A DNA stretch of 64,000 nt. It comes from Candidatus Latescibacterota bacterium. Lineage in GTDB: Bacteria > Latescibacterota > UBA2968. Shown piece after piece: positions 1 to 40,028 of the stretch. The position numbers were made by a program, and so were the translations under genes. The stretch lies in contig OZ242195.1 of NCBI GenBank assembly GCA_965205975.1, positions 3,862,656 through 3,926,655 of the forward strand. The letters run 5' to 3'. Numbering within the stretch: position 1 is the first letter of the stretch; each line of letters begins with the position of its first letter. The notes below the pieces were generated by a model. It did no database searches and was not told where the DNA came from. It was given only the letters and a program-made list of their open reading frames with translations.

Positions 1-324
1 CGAAGCTATAACTGTCGGCACTTGATTTGCCGATCTATCGAACATAACACTGGCTGCTGGCGTTCCCGCAATCTCGACAACACTGCTGGCAGTCACGACT
101 GGATAGCGCCCATCGTACACAAGCACATCGCATTCACCAACCCGCATCTCCTTAAAACCCTCGGGAACCTCCGAACACCGAAAAAGATATGTATCGTCAC
201 CGTCATAAAAAACAAGAGGAACCGCGAGCGGATCAAAGCCCGGCCACAATTCACCCCGTGCGGCCAGACGCTCAATCTCACGCGCCAAATCTGACACATG
301 TCTCCTATCTTTGGGAACACACAT
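1..324 (-). CDS. 3'-partial hypothetical CDS; only its N-terminal 108 codons lie in the window and it runs off the window start; its start overlaps the queF stop in TGATG
   Basis: The minus-strand frame is open from the ATG at 324-322 to position 1 with no stop: MCVPKDRRHVSDLAREIERLAARGELWPGFDPLAVPLVFYDGDDTYLFRCSEVPEGFKEMRVGECDVL... Start and stop overlap (TGATG) with the upstream queF, which suggests translational coupling. It is not in the ORF track because it is incomplete. Confidence 0.4.
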   Translation of the reverse strand, partial: MCVPKDRRHVSDLAREIERLAARGELWPGFDPLAVPLVFYDGDDTYLFRCSEVPEGFKEMRVGECDVLVYDGRYPVVTASSVVEIAGTPAASVMFDRSANQVPTVIAS

Positions 325-686
325 CAGACAGATCCCTCCTCATCTACCCGCTGATACGACGCCGTAATCTCGTGATCTATGCCCCCGCGAATATTGAAAC
401 GGCTGATCACCTCCATCTCGACCGGATCGCACAGATCTACCAGATCGTTCAAAATCTGATTCGTCACAGGCTCCATATAAATCCCCTGATCTCGGAACGA
501 CCAGAAATAGTGCTTCAGCGACCGCAACTCCACGCACCGCGGACCGGGAACATACCAGATCACAATCGTCGCAAAATCCGGCTGCCCCGTCTTGGGACAC
601 AACGACGTAAACTCCGGAAACGTAAACTCAATCGTATAACGCCGTTCCGGATTCGGATTATCAAACGCCTCTAATAGTGGACTCAT
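324..686 (-). CDS. queF: NADPH-dependent 7-cyano-7-deazaguanine (preQ0) reductase QueF, type I (T-fold)
   Basis: 120 aa. The motifs [15 protein letters not shown] (catalytic Cys region) and [13 protein letters not shown] (QueF E(S/L)K(S/A)hK(L/Y)(Y/F/W) motif) match Bacillus-type QueF, for example [24 protein letters not shown]. Confidence 0.85.
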   Translation of the reverse strand: [120 protein letters not shown]

Positions 687-765
687 ACTTCATCCTTCAC
701 ACTTCACATCTTATCTGCGTTCATCTGCGAAAAACGCTCAAATTACTCGCGTTTTTTTCTGCGGA

Positions 766-1110
766 TCATACCTCATCCTCACGCTCATACGCCACAGACA
801 CCCGCGTCTCAATCCCACCACGCACTGTAAAATCACCCGTCACATCCAACGTCAGCGGATCGCACGCCGCTACAAAATCATCCACAATTTTATTCACCAC
901 ACCCTCGTAAAACACCTTCTCATCCCGAAACGACCCCAAATACCGCTTCAGCGACATCTGCTCCACACACACCTCTCCCGGCACATAAGAAATCGAAACC
1001 GTCGCAAAAATCGGCTGCCCCGTCACCGCGTACAGCGCCGTAAACTCCGACGACTCAAAATCAATCGTATAAACCCGCCCGCGCTCGGGATTTTTAACGC
1101 ACGCTAACAT
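766..1110 (-). CDS. QueF-like T-fold paralog lacking the catalytic cysteine
   Basis: 115 aa taking the internal ATG (M43 of ORF 766..1236). It aligns with queF across its length: FESSEFTALYAVTGQPIFATVSISYVPGE matches [29 protein letters not shown], and it keeps EQMSLKRYLGSFR. The catalytic Cys is replaced by Tyr and the CPK triad by YAV. Confidence 0.7.
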   Translation of the reverse strand: MLACVKNPERGRVYTIDFESSEFTALYAVTGQPIFATVSISYVPGEVCVEQMSLKRYLGSFRDEKVFYEGVVNKIVDDFVAACDPLTLDVTGDFTVRGGIETRVSVAYEREDEV

Positions 1111-1114
1111 AAAA

Positions 1115-2281
1115 TCACTCAAATGGCACCAGACTCGCGCCCACCGGATCGGGATTCGTGGGCCGAATCGGCATCTCCTCATAAGAACGATAAGATATAT
1201 CCAGATGCGGCGTCTCAACCCGTCTGTACCCCTCATACCGCGAATCTATCAACGCCTCCAGCGCACCTGAAATCAACAACGTGCGCTCAACCGGATACTG
1301 CGGCTTACCCGTCAAAAACATCTGCTGAATATTCAAACTCAAATAACTAAAATGCGCATGCGGATTATCCGGCAAAAAAACGCGCATATTATCCACCTCT
1401 CCCCCGCGCCGCGCCGCAAAACCCCACCCCCGCGTGTACCCATTCAACATAAACGTCGCCGCCCTCAACCCATCTGCATACGCCAACAAAAAAACAGCCG
1501 GATTCTCGCAGTGATCGCGCACATCGCCATCTTCTTTCGCCTCAATATGCGCTATCGCCGCCGCGTACAAATCCCTATCCCACGCATCCGACGCCCAGAC
1601 ATCATCCCCCTCCAAACACTGCACCGCCACAATCCCCGTCTCCCCGCCCGCGCGGCGCTCAACCATACACTGCAGCGTCTCCAGCGCGTGAAAACCATAA
1701 GAATCAAGCCCACCAAAAGCCACCGACACCGCCGTCTCAATCTCCGTATCCAGTTCATACTCAAGCCACGGCTTTCGCCATGCAAGCGGCAGAGACGACC
1801 CCGCCATAAACGGCACATCGAGTTCCCGCGCGCGATCGCACATCCACTTTGCATCGTGCCAATTATACGACAGATGCTTATCGCTAAACACCGGCACAGA
1901 CCGCCCAGACGAAGCAAACACCCCGCAAATCTGCTCAAAAAAATACTTCCGCGGATACATATGTTGCTCCTTCTCATTCCACGGATAATCGCCATGCTCG
2001 CCAATCAGCAACACCCCATCCACCGCCAGCTTATCACCGCCCAAAGTCAAAGCCTGGTTAATACTCCCATACATCGGCACACCGAATTCCTCGGCAATCG
2101 CGCACCCGATATCGTCTCTGTAATGCACCTGATCCAGATACATCGACACCACATCCACCTCTGGTGGAAGCAACCCGTCATCTGTCGGAAACCCCTTCAA
2201 AAACTTCGTCACAATCACATCGGCGTGTGACCGCGGAAAATACGACGTAATCACCGCTGCAATTTTCTTTCGCTCGGCCAT
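1115..2281 (-). CDS. hypothetical protein, 389 aa; its 3' end lies 5 nt upstream of the QueF-like paralog (likely co-transcribed)
   Basis: Long ORF. I take the ATG at M23 (MAERKKIAAVITSYFPRSHADV...), which has a GGAGGA RBS 6 nt upstream. I recognise no family. Confidence 0.5.
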   Translation of the reverse strand: MAERKKIAAVITSYFPRSHADVIVTKFLKGFPTDDGLLPPEVDVVSMYLDQVHYRDDIGCAIAEEFGVPMYGSINQALTLGGDKLAVDGVLLIGEHGDYPWNEKEQHMYPRKYFFEQICGVFASSGRSVPVFSDKHLSYNWHDAKWMCDRARELDVPFMAGSSLPLAWRKPWLEYELDTEIETAVSVAFGGLDSYGFHALETLQCMVERRAGGETGIVAVQCLEGDDVWASDAWDRDLYAAAIAHIEAKEDGDVRDHCENPAVFLLAYADGLRAATFMLNGYTRGWGFAARRGGEVDNMRVFLPDNPHAHFSYLSLNIQQMFLTGKPQYPVERTLLISGALEALIDSRYEGYRRVETPHLDISYRSYEEMPIRPTNPDPVGASLVPFE

Positions 2282-2357
2282 GGCTTTCCTCCAATTGTGT
2301 GTCTCGTTATATAATCGTAAATTATACCACAAGGAGTATAACAACAATAAAAAAAAC

Positions 2358-2446
2358 CACTGGATCGCGGCTCAAGCATGCCCCTGCATGGTTTAAGCAG
2401 GGGACCATGCCGCGATGACGGGCGAGGCATGCCTCGCCCCTACAAT
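2358..2446. repeat. composite palindromic intergenic repeat (modules B+D+A)
   Basis: CTGGATCGCGGC...GCCGCGATGAC outer stem enclosing the CCCCTGCATGGTTTAAGCAGGGG hairpin, followed by the perfect palindrome GGGCGAGGCATGCCTCGCCC and then CTACA. The same modules recur about 25 times in the window. Confidence 0.85.
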
Positions 2447-2550
2447 GGATAACTGAACACTGACCGCTAAATATTCTTACATCCTCACACCCAAAATTTG
2501 GTATCTTAAAGCGTCCAAAACGCACTTTAACCATTACCGGGAGGAATATC

Positions 2551-3156
2551 TTGACCGAAGTCAAAGCCACCAACATCGTCTGGCACGAAGGCCATGTCGC
2601 GCGCAAACAGCGCGAAGACCTGCTCGAACAAAAAGGCGCACTCATCTGGCTCACCGGACTGCCCAGCTCGGGCAAAAGCACGATAGCATTCACCACAGAA
2701 CACGCCCTGATTGAACGCGGGCGCATGGCCTACGTACTCGACGGCGACAACATCCGCCATGGACTCAACAAAAACCTCGGATTCTCAGCCGAAGACCGCG
2801 CCGAAAACATCCGCCGCATCGGCGAAGTCGGCAAACTCTTTGCCGACACCGGCATCATCACCCTATCCAGCTTTGTAAGCCCCTATCGCACCGACCGCGA
2901 CGGCGTGCGCGAACTCATGGAAGACAAAAACTTCATCGAAGTATTCATCAACACCCCCCTCGACGTATGTGAAGAACGCGACCCAAAGGGCCTGTACAAA
3001 AAAGCGCGCACAGGTGAAATACCCAACTTCACCGGCATCTCTGACCCCTATGAACCGCCTGAAAATCCCGAACTCGTCATACACACCGTTGACAGCACCC
3101 CACAAGAGGCCGCATTGCAAATCATCGCCCTGCTCGAAACGCGCGGAAACATATAG
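2551..3156 (+). CDS. cysC: adenylyl-sulfate (APS) kinase
   Basis: P-loop LTGLPSSGKST and the APS kinase motifs YVLDGDNIRHGLNKNLGF and SFVSPY. TTG start with a GGGAGGA RBS. Confidence 0.9.
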   Translation: MTEVKATNIVWHEGHVARKQREDLLEQKGALIWLTGLPSSGKSTIAFTTEHALIERGRMAYVLDGDNIRHGLNKNLGFSAEDRAENIRRIGEVGKLFADTGIITLSSFVSPYRTDRDGVRELMEDKNFIEVFINTPLDVCEERDPKGLYKKARTGEIPNFTGISDPYEPPENPELVIHTVDSTPQEAALQIIALLETRGNI

Positions 3157-3837: not shown

Positions 3838-5202
3838 ATGATCTACCACCAACTCTTCTCCCAAATTGACCGCACCGTACGCGTTGGCGTCATCGGCACC
3901 GGACACTACGCCACAGCCCTCATCACACAATCGCGCGTCGTCGATCAACTCCACGTACCCGTCGTCTGTGACACAAACCCTGACGCAGCCCAAAATGCAT
4001 ATCATCACGCCGGCCTGGACACCGACAAAACCATCATAGCCGACACCACCCAACAGGCAGCCAAAGCCATAGAACAGGGCAAACACGTCATCCTCACCGA
4101 CGCCATGCAAATGATGGACCTGCCCCTCGACGTCATCGTAGAATCCACGGGCGTCCCGAGTGCAGGCGCAAAACACGGCATAGAAGCCATACGACACGGC
4201 AAACACGTCGCCATGGTATCCAAAGAAACCGACGTCACCGTCGGACCCATCCTCAAACACCTCGCAGACAAAGCCGGACTCGTCTATACCGCTGTTGACG
4301 GCGACCAGCACGGCCTGCTCATGGGCCTTGTGCAATGGGCGCGCGGCCTGGGCCTCGAAGTACTCTGCGGAGGCAAATCACTGGACTCTGACCGCGTTTA
4401 CGACCCACAGACCAACGCCATCGTCTGGTCCAAAGGCAAAATCCAGATCCCCGACGAACAGATATTCTCCACCCAAAATCCCTCGGCCTACATCGCACAA
4501 CGCCGTCAAATCATGGGCGAACTCGGCGCCATCGCCGGTTACGACATCACCGAACTCACCATCGCCGCCAATGCCACCGGTCTCATCCCCGATATAGACA
4601 CCCTGCACACACCCGTAGTCCGCACCGTTGAAATACCCGAAGTCCTCGCACCCAGAGAAGACGGCGGCATCTTATCCCACCGCGGCGTCATCGACTGCGT
4701 CTCCTGCCTGCGCCAGGCAAATGAACCCGGCCTTGGCGGCGGCGTCTTCATCGTCATCGCCTGTGAAAACGCCTACTCCCGCCACATCCTCACCACCAAA
4801 GGACTCATCCCCAACAAAAAAGGCACCACAGCCCTCATCTACCGCCCCTATCACCTCTGCGGCGTTGAAACACCCATCACAACACTCGTCGCCGGCCTCT
4901 TAAACCTGCCCACGGGCACGACCGACTACCACCCATCCTTTGACGTTGTAGGCCGCGCAAAAGAACACCTCAAAGCCGGTGATCGGATCGGCAACGACCA
5001 CAGCAAAAACATCGAATACCTCATGCGCCCCGCGCTACCCGTCGCGCCCGACAACCCCCTCCCCTACCACATGGCCAACGGCAATACCCTCAGCCGGGAC
5101 ATCCCCGCTGGCACCTTCATCACAGCAAGCGCGATACAACCCAAAGACAACGACCCCCTCTGGACGCTTCGCAAAGAACAGGACGCGCATTTTCTAAAAT
5201 AA
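3838..5202 (+). CDS. NAD(P)-binding oxidoreductase, homoserine-dehydrogenase-like with a C-terminal SAF-like region (COG4091-type)
   Basis: N-terminal Rossmann motif VGVIGTGHYAT and a 454-aa architecture typical of predicted homoserine-dehydrogenase-like proteins. The family assignment is tentative. Confidence 0.5.
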   Translation: MIYHQLFSQIDRTVRVGVIGTGHYATALITQSRVVDQLHVPVVCDTNPDAAQNAYHHAGLDTDKTIIADTTQQAAKAIEQGKHVILTDAMQMMDLPLDVIVESTGVPSAGAKHGIEAIRHGKHVAMVSKETDVTVGPILKHLADKAGLVYTAVDGDQHGLLMGLVQWARGLGLEVLCGGKSLDSDRVYDPQTNAIVWSKGKIQIPDEQIFSTQNPSAYIAQRRQIMGELGAIAGYDITELTIAANATGLIPDIDTLHTPVVRTVEIPEVLAPREDGGILSHRGVIDCVSCLRQANEPGLGGGVFIVIACENAYSRHILTTKGLIPNKKGTTALIYRPYHLCGVETPITTLVAGLLNLPTGTTDYHPSFDVVGRAKEHLKAGDRIGNDHSKNIEYLMRPALPVAPDNPLPYHMANGNTLSRDIPAGTFITASAIQPKDNDPLWTLRKEQDAHFLK

Positions 5203-5243
5203 AAAAAACCGAGTACATCTTTGCAATGTACTCGGTTTTTCTC
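5201..5243. terminator. bidirectional Rho-independent terminator
   Basis: An A-tract, then the CCGAGTACAT / ATGTACTCGG stem, then TTTTTCTC. It sits between convergent genes (3838..5202 + and 5262..5849 -). Confidence 0.8.
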
Positions 5244-5261
5244 TAAATATTATCGACCTAC

Positions 5262-5849
5262 TCACCAAATCTCATCCAAATCCAGTTCAAATCCCCGCAA
5301 AACGGGATCGCCAGAAATGCGCGAAGGCTGCTCCAACTCCTCTATGGGCAAGCCAGCGCGATACACATAAACGCGCCGTGCATAAGGATCGATCAACCAC
5401 CCCAAACTAAGGCCATTATCGAGATATTCCCGCATCTTTTCCTGCAATGGAGCCAACTGATCACTTTCCGACCGCAATTCAATGACAAAATCGGGACATA
5501 ATGGAACAAACTTGCGTCGGTCTTCTGAAGACAATGCCATCAGCCGCGTATATTCAATCCACGCGGCATCGGGCGACCGCACCGCCCCATTGGGCAACTG
5601 AAACCCACCTGACGAATCAAAACTCGCACCCGTACCATCCCCTTTTGCCCAAAACCGCAACTGCATAGTAATCTCTGCATTGCGCTCGCTCGTCTCACCC
5701 CCCGCTGGTGGCATAATAATCACATCTCCCTGCGCATTGCGCTCAATGCAAACATCGCGATTGAGTTGGCAAAACGCATAAAAATCCTCATCACTCACCT
5801 CGATCACCGGCTGAAAATGCAAGACAGTTTCCATCTTTGCAATCTCCAT
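5262..5849 (-). CDS. Uma2-family (DUF820) putative restriction-endonuclease-fold protein
   Basis: 195 aa with a typical Uma2 signature (FYAFCQLNRDVCIERNAQGDVIIMPPAGGETSERNAEI). Confidence 0.7.
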   Translation of the reverse strand: MEIAKMETVLHFQPVIEVSDEDFYAFCQLNRDVCIERNAQGDVIIMPPAGGETSERNAEITMQLRFWAKGDGTGASFDSSGGFQLPNGAVRSPDAAWIEYTRLMALSSEDRRKFVPLCPDFVIELRSESDQLAPLQEKMREYLDNGLSLGWLIDPYARRVYVYRAGLPIEELEQPSRISGDPVLRGFELDLDEIW

Positions 5850-9432: not shown

Positions 9433-9644
9433 AGTTAAAGAAAAATACCACAACAACCCGTATTTTCAAACTCTTTTTGTACGCTTCGCACTTGATTGGA
9501 TTGGGAAGAATATATATTTTCTCTCGTTGCAGATTGTAAGGGCGAGGCATGCCTCGCCCCTACGGTTGCTTCACACTTCACGGACCCTCTTTTTTATTTG
9601 CATTCATCTGCGTTCATCTGCGTTCATCTGCGGATCACACTTCC

Positions 9645-25436: not shown

Positions 25437-25739
25437 GATCGCAGACGGGAAGGCACACGCAGGGGCGAGGCATGCCTCGCCCCTACACGAATTAACAATA
25501 TCACCACCTTTACAATTTATCTTGCATATAAGAGGAGAATGACTATATTGCATATCGAGTGAGAACGCGGAATTGCGGGTATTAGTCATTCTTTCGCAGA
25601 GCCTCCCCTATCTCTGCTAACTGTGCCCTTCCTCACCTTCCGAGTATCTCGCTTTTTTTCCCTCTACAATTCGTTCCGACTCTCTATTTCTATCAGAGAG
25701 CGGTGTAGTTATGTTTCACATCTCTTAAGGAATCCCGTC

Positions 25740-32278: not shown

Positions 32279-32336
32279 GATGGGCGAGGCATGCCTCGCT
32301 CCTACAATCGGGCAACCACGAGGGTTGCCCCTACAA
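32279..32336. repeat. two tandem A-type hairpin repeats between prcA and the pafA-like gene
   Basis: GGGCGAGGCATGCCTCGCTCCTACAATC + GGGCAACCACGAGGGTTGCCCCTACAAT. Confidence 0.85.
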
Positions 32337-37675: not shown

Positions 37676-37700
37676 CGGGCGAGGCATGCCTCGCCCCTAC
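37676..37700. repeat. A-type palindromic repeat
   Basis: GGGCGAGGCATGCCTCGCCCCTAC. Confidence 0.9.
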
Positions 37701-39964: not shown

Positions 39965-40028
39965 TGCAACCACAGATGAACACAGATAAACACGGATAAA
40001 TGACGGGCGAGGCATGCCTCGCCCCTAC
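39965..40028. repeat. C-module direct repeat plus A-type hairpin
   Basis: GCAACCACAGATGAACACAGATAAACACGGATAAATGAC + GGGCGAGGCATGCCTCGCCCCTACA. Confidence 0.9.

Follow-up and report, generated by a model that had tools for sequence, protein, structure and literature searches.

QueF reduces a nitrile to a primary amine, a four-electron reaction for which, to our knowledge, no other biological example is known. The enzyme has been examined for its role in queuosine biology as well as for biocatalysis. All characterized QueF that we know of form homo-oligomers, which are either decamers of unimodular subunits or dimers of bimodular ones. Here, we analyzed a stretch of 64,000 nucleotides (hereafter ‘the window’) from a Candidatus Latescibacterota bacterium (contig OZ242195.1, positions 3,862,656 to 3,926,655 of the forward strand, assembly GCA_965205975.1), in which two QueF-type genes lie in tandem. 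The downstream copy (‘QueFc’ in short) is predicted to be a canonical unimodular QueF, that is, a preQ0 reductase. The upstream paralogue (‘QueF'’) has the QueF fold without the catalytic dyad and is probably a non-catalytic partner subunit of QueFc.

In unimodular QueF, the active sites are located at the subunit interfaces, and in the bimodular form, the QueF motif and Cys/Glu residues are carried by separate modules that meet in one active site (PMC5372742, PMC5699537). The motif Glu of the bimodular enzyme, which is Glu89 in E. coli, adjoins the nicotinamide and Cys190 (PMC5372742, PMC5699537, PMC7317782). The Cys and the Asp act as an interdependent dyad in the covalent catalysis of QueF (PMC7317782). 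According to the family criteria of Mohammad et al., a QueF is recognized by Cys55, Asp62, and Glu97 (B. subtilis numbering) together with a QueF motif that includes Glu78, and a sequence in which any one of these is missing is regarded as non-QueF (PMC5372742). The consensus used for the motif was E(S/L)K(S/A)hK(L/Y)(Y/F/W).

The genes of QueF' (1110..766, 114 aa) and QueFc (686..324, 120 aa) are both located on the minus strand. A tandem pair of QueF-type genes had been proposed in the first-pass annotation of the window, and this was borne out by family matches far beyond chance for both proteins. Against PF14489, the E-values were 2e-27 for QueF' and 1e-28 for QueFc, and against the TIGR03139 ‘preQ(1) synthase’ equivalog model, which has a cutoff of 86.9 bits, the scores were 124.9 and 162 bits, respectively. 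Both copies were then aligned with HMMER to crystal chains of QueF from B. subtilis (4F8B, 4FGC, and 5UDG), with residue numbers following the literature. QueFc, which matched 4F8B with an E-value of 8e-31, was found to carry the full set of family-defining residues, with Cys30 at the position of Cys55, Asp37 at Asp62, Glu72 at Glu97, and Glu53 at the motif Glu78. It therefore counts as a QueF by the criteria of Mohammad et al. (PMC5372742). Its motif, ELRSLKHY, deviates from the consensus at position 3 (Arg for Lys) and position 7 (His for Leu/Tyr). QueFc is also 57-62% identical to the QueFs of Ignavibacteria, Armatimonadetes, Vicinamibacteria, and others.

QueF' was different at the catalytic positions. 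Its alignment to 4F8B and 4FGC ran without gaps over ~ 97 residues and placed Tyr27 at the position of Cys55 and Ile34 at that of Asp62, so that both members of the dyad are missing. The equivalents of the substrate-anchoring Glu97 (Glu69) and of the motif Glu78 (Glu50) are kept. In its motif, EQMSLKRY, the Glu, Ser, Leu, second Lys, and Tyr are retained, and positions 2, 3, and 7 differ from the consensus. The loss of the Cys and the retention of the second motif had already been pointed out in the first-pass annotation; the loss of the Asp62 equivalent comes in addition. A Cys hidden by misalignment was ruled out, as the alignment to 4F8B runs across the site without a gap. The other cysteines of QueF', C48 and C83, were discarded as evidence of such a hidden residue, the same Cys being found in canonical QueFs as well. 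By the published criteria, QueF' is not a QueF. Because the thioimide-forming Cys and its partner Asp are both lost, QueF' should be incapable of catalysing the conversion of preQ0 to preQ1 alone, and it is very likely unable to reduce a nitrile by the QueF mechanism at all.

The fold of QueF' is nevertheless predicted to be that of QueF. The AlphaFold model (AF2) reached a pLDDT of 92.9 and has the beta-beta-alpha-alpha-beta-beta arrangement of a T-fold, and it superimposed on B. subtilis QueF (4F8B/4FGC) with a template modelling (TM) score of 0.90-0.93 and a root-mean-square deviation (rmsd) of 1.2 Å. In public records, the relatives of the window gene (P0001, P0030, P0046, and P0065) are named ‘preQ(1) synthase’ or ‘7-cyano-7-deazaguanine reductase’. 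The label ‘preQ(1) synthase’ is a systematic over-annotation of QueF', since the protein passes the TIGR03139 cutoff (124.9 vs 86.9 bits) despite the missing Cys55 and Asp62. This is a practical point for annotation, as a match to an equivalog model is here combined with the failure of two of the four published family-defining features.

To describe the distribution of QueF', its relatives were collected from several sources. A search of 5.8 billion proteins returned ~ 66 clusters of relatives (at 90% identity), which are 51-94% identical to QueF'. All of them are without the Cys, which is replaced by Tyr in nearly all and by His in one, and all have Ile or Val at the Asp site; at lower identity, ordinary Cys-bearing QueFs start. 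In an exhaustive HMMER search of 1.84 billion representatives, the score fell from 164 to 109 bits after the first match, and Tyr was present at the Cys site in only two of the 150 nearest clusters at 50% identity (P0044 and P0233). A scan with one genome per species of the Genome Taxonomy Database (GTDB) gave 46 loci, of which ~ 38 were labelled Latescibacterota. Four loci with an identical gene order were labelled Gemmatimonadota/Gemmatimonadetes, and the remaining loci were ordinary acidobacterial QueFs.

Combining the loci of this genome scan with those from metagenomes, 45 distinct pairs of QueF' and QueFc were obtained, almost all of them from Latescibacterota genomes. The order was the same in each of the 45, with the dyad-less copy first and the Cys-bearing copy second. 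The stop codon of QueF' overlaps the start of QueFc in 26 pairs (by 4, 8, or 11 nucleotides, with the genes in different frames), a gap of 1-30 nucleotides separates them in six, and the gap is wider in 13, including the window. At the Cys55 site, QueF' has Tyr in 40 pairs, Leu in three, His in one, and Arg in one, and the residue at the Asp62 site varies among orthologues (I/V/S/C/F). The family alignment of QueF' contains 25 invariant positions, among them E50, S53, K55, E69, and R97-G98-G99; at the Cys55 position, the residue is nearly but not fully constant. In an 8-Mb genome (L006:8283-8789), an IS200/Y1-transposase gene lies between a gene of the glucose-fructose oxidoreductase (GFO) family and QueFc, and no QueF' remnant was detected. 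Another degenerate QueF-like variant is the metagenome protein P0070 (123 aa), which falls with the QueF' clade and carries Asn in place of Cys55 and Glu in place of Asp62; the anchoring Glu97 is apparently replaced too.

Selection on the pair was evaluated from the ratio of nonsynonymous to synonymous substitution rates (dN/dS) in 14 close genomes. The median ratio was 0.34 for QueF', 0.125 for QueFc, and 0.149 for the 388-aa protein encoded by the adjoining gene (‘U388’, see below). QueF' is thus under purifying selection, which is clearly more relaxed than that on QueFc. Neighbor-joining (NJ) trees recovered the QueF' clade as monophyletic in 79 of 100 bootstraps, and the best tree placed it as sister to the QueFc clade. 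A lineage-specific duplication that gave rise to QueF' and QueFc is likely.

We hypothesize that an old tandem duplication of a unimodular queF, later fixed in the Latescibacterota lineage, gave both genes. QueFc would be an ordinary NADPH-dependent nitrile reductase that forms preQ1, with preQ0 as the presumed substrate, and QueF' would have been maintained by purifying selection as a protein that folds into a T-fold and whose translation is usually coupled to that of QueFc. It seems quite possible that the two proteins assemble into a mixed T-fold oligomer. In such an assembly, the motif face of QueF' would be presented to the Cys/Asp/Glu-bearing face of a QueFc subunit, and the reciprocal interface would be catalytically silent, possibly still binding a ligand. 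The arrangement would then be an analogue, evolved independently and without fusion, of how the two modules of bimodular QueF share the work. Indeed, what QueF' has retained are the elements that are given by the neighbouring module, namely the Glu, Ser, and Lys of the motif and the RGG loop, plus the anchoring Glu. A mixed oligomer is the most economical explanation because these neighbour-contributed elements are kept, the elements for covalent chemistry are lost, the gene order is constant, and coupling is frequent. The first-pass annotation had suggested a regulatory or scaffolding subunit of a hetero-oligomeric QueF; as to the partner role this agrees best with the evidence, and the assembly is put forward here as a proposal.

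Several observations weigh against a mixed oligomer. The rings of unimodular QueF are pentamers, in which a strict alternation of two subunit types is impossible, so a heteromer would need another stoichiometry or ring size. QueFc keeps a complete QueF motif of its own, and a partner should therefore not be needed. At position 3 of the motif, QueF' has Met or Val where the consensus has Lys. The grouping of the QueF' and QueFc clades as sisters received a bootstrap support of only 16-19%. Finally, L006 keeps QueFc only, with the IS200-type transposase gene in the place of QueF', which suggests that QueF' is dispensable.

The partnership might be extended to an obligate or regulatory two-gene heteromeric nitrile reductase, as an unfused intermediate on the way from unimodular to bimodular T-fold enzymes. 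This is a more doubtful possibility than a mixed oligomer as such. In that case, the silent pocket of QueF', which retains its anchoring Glu, could bind a 7-deazaguanine for allosteric control or channelling, and U388 could be tied to the enzyme functionally, e.g., through NADPH supply or a shared substrate.

Part of the same evidence would also suit a role of QueF' away from QueFc. The anchoring Glu69 is invariant across the QueF' family, and the E97Q substitution at the equivalent position of the known enzyme mainly raises the Km for preQ0, by 280-fold (PMC5372742). With its fold intact and the catalytic dyad gone, QueF' could form a homo-oligomer that binds preQ0, preQ1, or a guanine- or pterin-like base without converting it, and that buffers, delivers, or senses this compound apart from the QueFc ring. 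We consider this unlikely. It leaves unexplained why E50, S53, and K55, which serve the NADPH and the active site of the neighbour, are invariant, and why the stop/start overlap with QueFc is so widespread; moreover, no riboswitch or regulator gene was found nearby.

Somewhat less likely still is a new enzymatic function, in which QueF' would act as a reductase that depends on NADPH, needs no covalent intermediate, and uses the Tyr as general acid. It could reduce the carbonyl or imine of a purine- or pterin-like compound, or of another substrate, possibly tied to the adjacent Gfo/Idh/MocA-like proteins. The replacement of Cys by Tyr in 40 of the 45 pairs, the partly kept NADPH motif, and the retained anchoring Glu are in line with this, as is the tight and conserved position next to U388, often with a second GFO-family gene adjoining as well. 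However, a catalytic role of the Tyr is hard to square with the Leu (three), His (one), and Arg (one) that replace it in otherwise intact orthologues, and the former Asp position is hydrophobic or variable. The dN/dS of QueF', nearly three times that of QueFc, fits a relaxed constraint and not a new catalytic one. The different substrate chemistry through the new Tyr that had been considered in the first-pass annotation is accordingly weakened, the position being Leu, His, or Arg in five of the 45 pairs.

The gene of U388 (2281..1115, minus strand) precedes the pair. The first-pass annotation had its coordinates right and gave its length as 389 aa; the gene has 389 codons including the stop, and the protein 388 residues. 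No Pfam or NCBIfam match was obtained for U388 at E <= 0.1, and a profile search against the sequences of the Protein Data Bank (PDB) gave nothing significant (E ~ 0.9). The AF2 model (pLDDT 93.2) was more informative. Its best match in Foldseek was GenD2 (6NOR), followed by many Gfo/Idh/MocA enzymes (E-values of 1e-14 to 1e-10, TM 0.45-0.66), with glucose-fructose oxidoreductase, inositol dehydrogenases, and biliverdin reductase among the further matches. U388 is thus predicted to have a Gfo/Idh/MocA-like two-domain fold, where the first-pass annotation had seen no recognised family. Like the Gfo/Idh/MocA oxidoreductases, the model combines a Rossmann-like N-domain with an alpha/beta C-domain. 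It differs from them in the absence of any Pfam or NCBIfam match and of the glycine-rich motif, and its TM scores are only 0.45-0.66. Neither membership by sequence in PF01408/PF02894 nor the glycine-rich NAD(P)-binding loop was found: the loop after the first strand reads TSYFPRSHAD and is not glycine-rich, which makes classical NAD(P) binding by U388 doubtful.

U388 has a very large family without a Pfam model, of which at least 8000 clusters (90% identity) were scored; the names among the matches listed include Latescibacterota and Poribacteria. Its highly conserved residues are H19, D50, E95-H96-G97, D134-K135, and H198. In two independent assemblies of one marine lineage (L057 and L058, ~ 4368-5533), the U388 orthologue is split by a frameshift near residue 142, and the QueF pair downstream is intact.

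The linkage between U388 and the QueF pair was surveyed from three starting points, namely QueF', QueFc, and U388. In nearly all of ~ 50 related loci the order was U388, in some cases a GFO gene, QueF', and QueFc. U388 orthologues of at least 65% identity are almost always followed by the QueF pair, sometimes with a bona fide GFO-family gene in between. The exceptions were L008, with no QueF at all, and L006, with QueFc only. The first-pass annotation had named an absence of conserved linkage with queF as grounds against its reading, and for the 388-aa gene the linkage proved to be conserved.

In deep Latescibacterota lineages, the QueF pair is embedded in a common neighbourhood of 12-14 genes (e.g., L003:1-16339, L027, and L055). 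Leftward of a divergent start, this block contains a galactonate-dehydratase-like enolase (309 bits vs a cutoff of 311), an SDR, and a Kbl glycine C-acetyltransferase (636 bits). Rightward, it contains a PTE-family (lactonase-like) protein that carries a twin-arginine-like leader, U388, in some cases the GFO gene, QueF', QueFc, an M42 aminopeptidase, and an unknown secreted protein. Beyond these, genes on the opposite strand encode an EamA transporter, an Fe-ADH, a glutamine-synthetase-like ligase, and a xylose-isomerase-like TIM-barrel protein. In the lineage of the window, the flanks have been lost, and U388, QueF', and QueFc remain, adjoining APS kinase and cyclase genes. The wider neighbourhood looks like sugar-acid and amino-acid metabolism held together by synteny and not like a deazapurine pathway. 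No preQ1 or other riboswitch was matched by Rfam at E <= 5 in positions 1-3000 of the window, and a six-frame regular-expression search of the 64 kb, which is a weak test, revealed no signature motifs of Tgt, QueC, QueD, QueE, QueA, QueG, or FolE. The variant 7-deazaguanine pathway that the first-pass annotation had envisaged around these genes is therefore disfavoured.

It might be argued that the whole pair serves this surrounding cluster of GFO-type dehydrogenases, PTE-family protein, enolase, SDR, Kbl, and M42, and not queuosine. The same 12-14-gene neighbourhood is indeed found across deeply diverged Latescibacterota, in which QueF' is only 44-60% identical, and neither que genes (by the motif search of the window) nor a preQ1 riboswitch (by Rfam in positions 1-3000) were found near the pair. 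We nevertheless regard a dedicated cluster role as improbable. QueFc has all the residues by which a preQ0 reductase is defined, lies far above the TIGR03139 cutoff, and shares 57-62% identity with QueFs from unrelated phyla; the window lineage lost most of the neighbourhood and kept U388, QueF', and QueFc; and the mixture of unrelated functions in the neighbourhood fits conserved synteny and not a single pathway. Least of all do we believe that QueF' is a decaying, functionless duplicate: it has lost its catalytic residues, evolves faster than QueFc, and was lost or replaced by an insertion sequence (IS) in L006, but an intact reading frame is found in 45 distinct pairs, over a range of 44-96% identity, 25 positions are invariant, its dN/dS of 0.34 is well below 1, and its fold is predicted with confidence.

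The close spacing of the genes in the window is compatible with joint expression. All four open reading frames considered here are on the minus strand, and the coordinates and quoted motifs of the first-pass annotation were correct. Four nucleotides separate the stop codon of U388 (TGA) from the ATG of QueF', and the spacer between QueF' and QueFc is 79 nucleotides. A GGAGGA Shine-Dalgarno sequence is located 5' of U388 at 2292..2287, within a divergent intergenic region (2282..2550) between U388 on the minus strand and the APS kinase gene on the plus strand. An extended -10-like site, TGGTATAAT, was spotted by eye at 2329..2321 in the region upstream of U388. A consensus promoter scan gave no site by its own criteria and nothing above the shuffled background. 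Between the genes of U388, QueF', and QueFc, the terminator scan revealed no terminator-like site standing out, which fits a single transcript of the three genes without amounting to proof; the co-transcription of U388 with the QueF pair is something we infer.

The divergent region also contains one copy of an 18-nucleotide perfect palindrome, GGCGAGGCATGCCTCGCC, located at 2421-2438 within the divergent promoter region 5' of U388. Six copies of it, one of them with one mismatch, are present in the 64 kb, where none are expected; the others are at 9541-9558, 25464-25481, 32283-32300, 37678-37695, and 40006-40023. The palindrome resembles a repetitive extragenic palindromic (REP)-type intergenic repeat.

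A fourth open reading frame (324..1, minus strand) follows QueFc and comprises the N-terminal 108 codons of a gene for ~ 440 aa, which is cut by the edge of the window. As described in the first-pass annotation, a TGATG is present at 326..322, where the TGA of QueFc shares its A with the ATG of this frame. The proposal that the overlapping gene is part of the same unit was not sustained. Its homologues lie directly 3' of QueFc only in the nearest relatives (L013-L016 and L018); in L010 the homologue is 3 kb off, in L001 a C-terminal remnant of 74 aa is left, and in deeper lineages it is absent. It was consequently rejected as an operon member and is regarded as a lineage-specific neighbour. 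A full-length relative (L016:10743-12065) has ~ 440 aa and a HEAFH (HExxH-type) motif; no Pfam match was found for it, and none in Pfam or NCBIfam for the fragment in the window.

Our literature search found no paper on a dyad-less QueF paralogue or a heteromeric QueF, and nothing relevant on queuosine in Latescibacteria. A conserved dyad-less paralogue that accompanies the active copy would, if it is a true partner, be the first sign of a two-subunit QueF. Such an enzyme would be a living model of how the split active site of bimodular QueF could arise through duplication and partial degeneration. The finding is of interest for work on queuosine, on T-fold evolution, and on nitrile-reductase engineering. 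We regard QueF' as a conserved, pseudoenzyme-like presumptive partner of a well-studied T-fold enzyme in an uncultured phylum, and not as a new kind of system.

Compared with the known systems, the pair is closest to unimodular QueF (YkvM type, B. subtilis; 4F8B/4FGC; EC 1.7.1.13). Both window proteins are single T-fold modules that match PF14489 and TIGR03139, QueFc has the full catalytic set, and QueF' is 42-44% identical to the B. subtilis enzyme, with a model rmsd of 1.2 Å. The known unimodular enzymes are homodecamers of one gene product with Cys55 and Asp62 in every subunit, whereas in the Latescibacterota pairs a gene for a dyad-less second subunit accompanies the active one. In addition, QueF' (114 aa) and QueFc (120 aa) are short forms; the B. 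subtilis enzyme, with 165 aa, has N- and C-terminal extensions that both of them lack.

QueF-L, the archaeosine synthase of Crenarchaeota (5JYX), is likewise a QueF paralogue with the same fold and an altered chemistry, and its TM score to the QueF' model is ~ 0.8. It differs in that it keeps the Cys and the Asp, forms the thioimide, and has lost NADPH binding (PMC5485725, PMC5699537). The identification of QueF' as a QueF-L was therefore rejected, as QueF' is the opposite, with no Cys/Asp and a motif that is mostly kept.

The bimodular QueF (YqcD type, E. coli/V. cholerae; 3S19, 3BP1) resembles the pair in having two tandem T-fold modules with the Cys/Asp in one of them, and in a Cys-less module that keeps the motif Glu lining the same active site (PMC5372742, PMC7317782). 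In the bimodular enzyme, however, the modules are fused, the N-module is also without the anchoring Glu, and the C-module is without the motif, whereas the pair in the window consists of separate genes, in which the Glu is still present in QueF' and the motif in QueFc. An identity with bimodular QueF or QueF_N was rejected, as there is no two-module polypeptide of ~ 280 aa and PF14819 (QueF_N) was matched only at E = 0.09, below the cutoff. QueF' aligns instead to the C-terminal module of bimodular QueF. This alignment and the weak match to PF14819 indicate that the likeness between the Latescibacterota pair and bimodular QueF is convergent and not orthologous.

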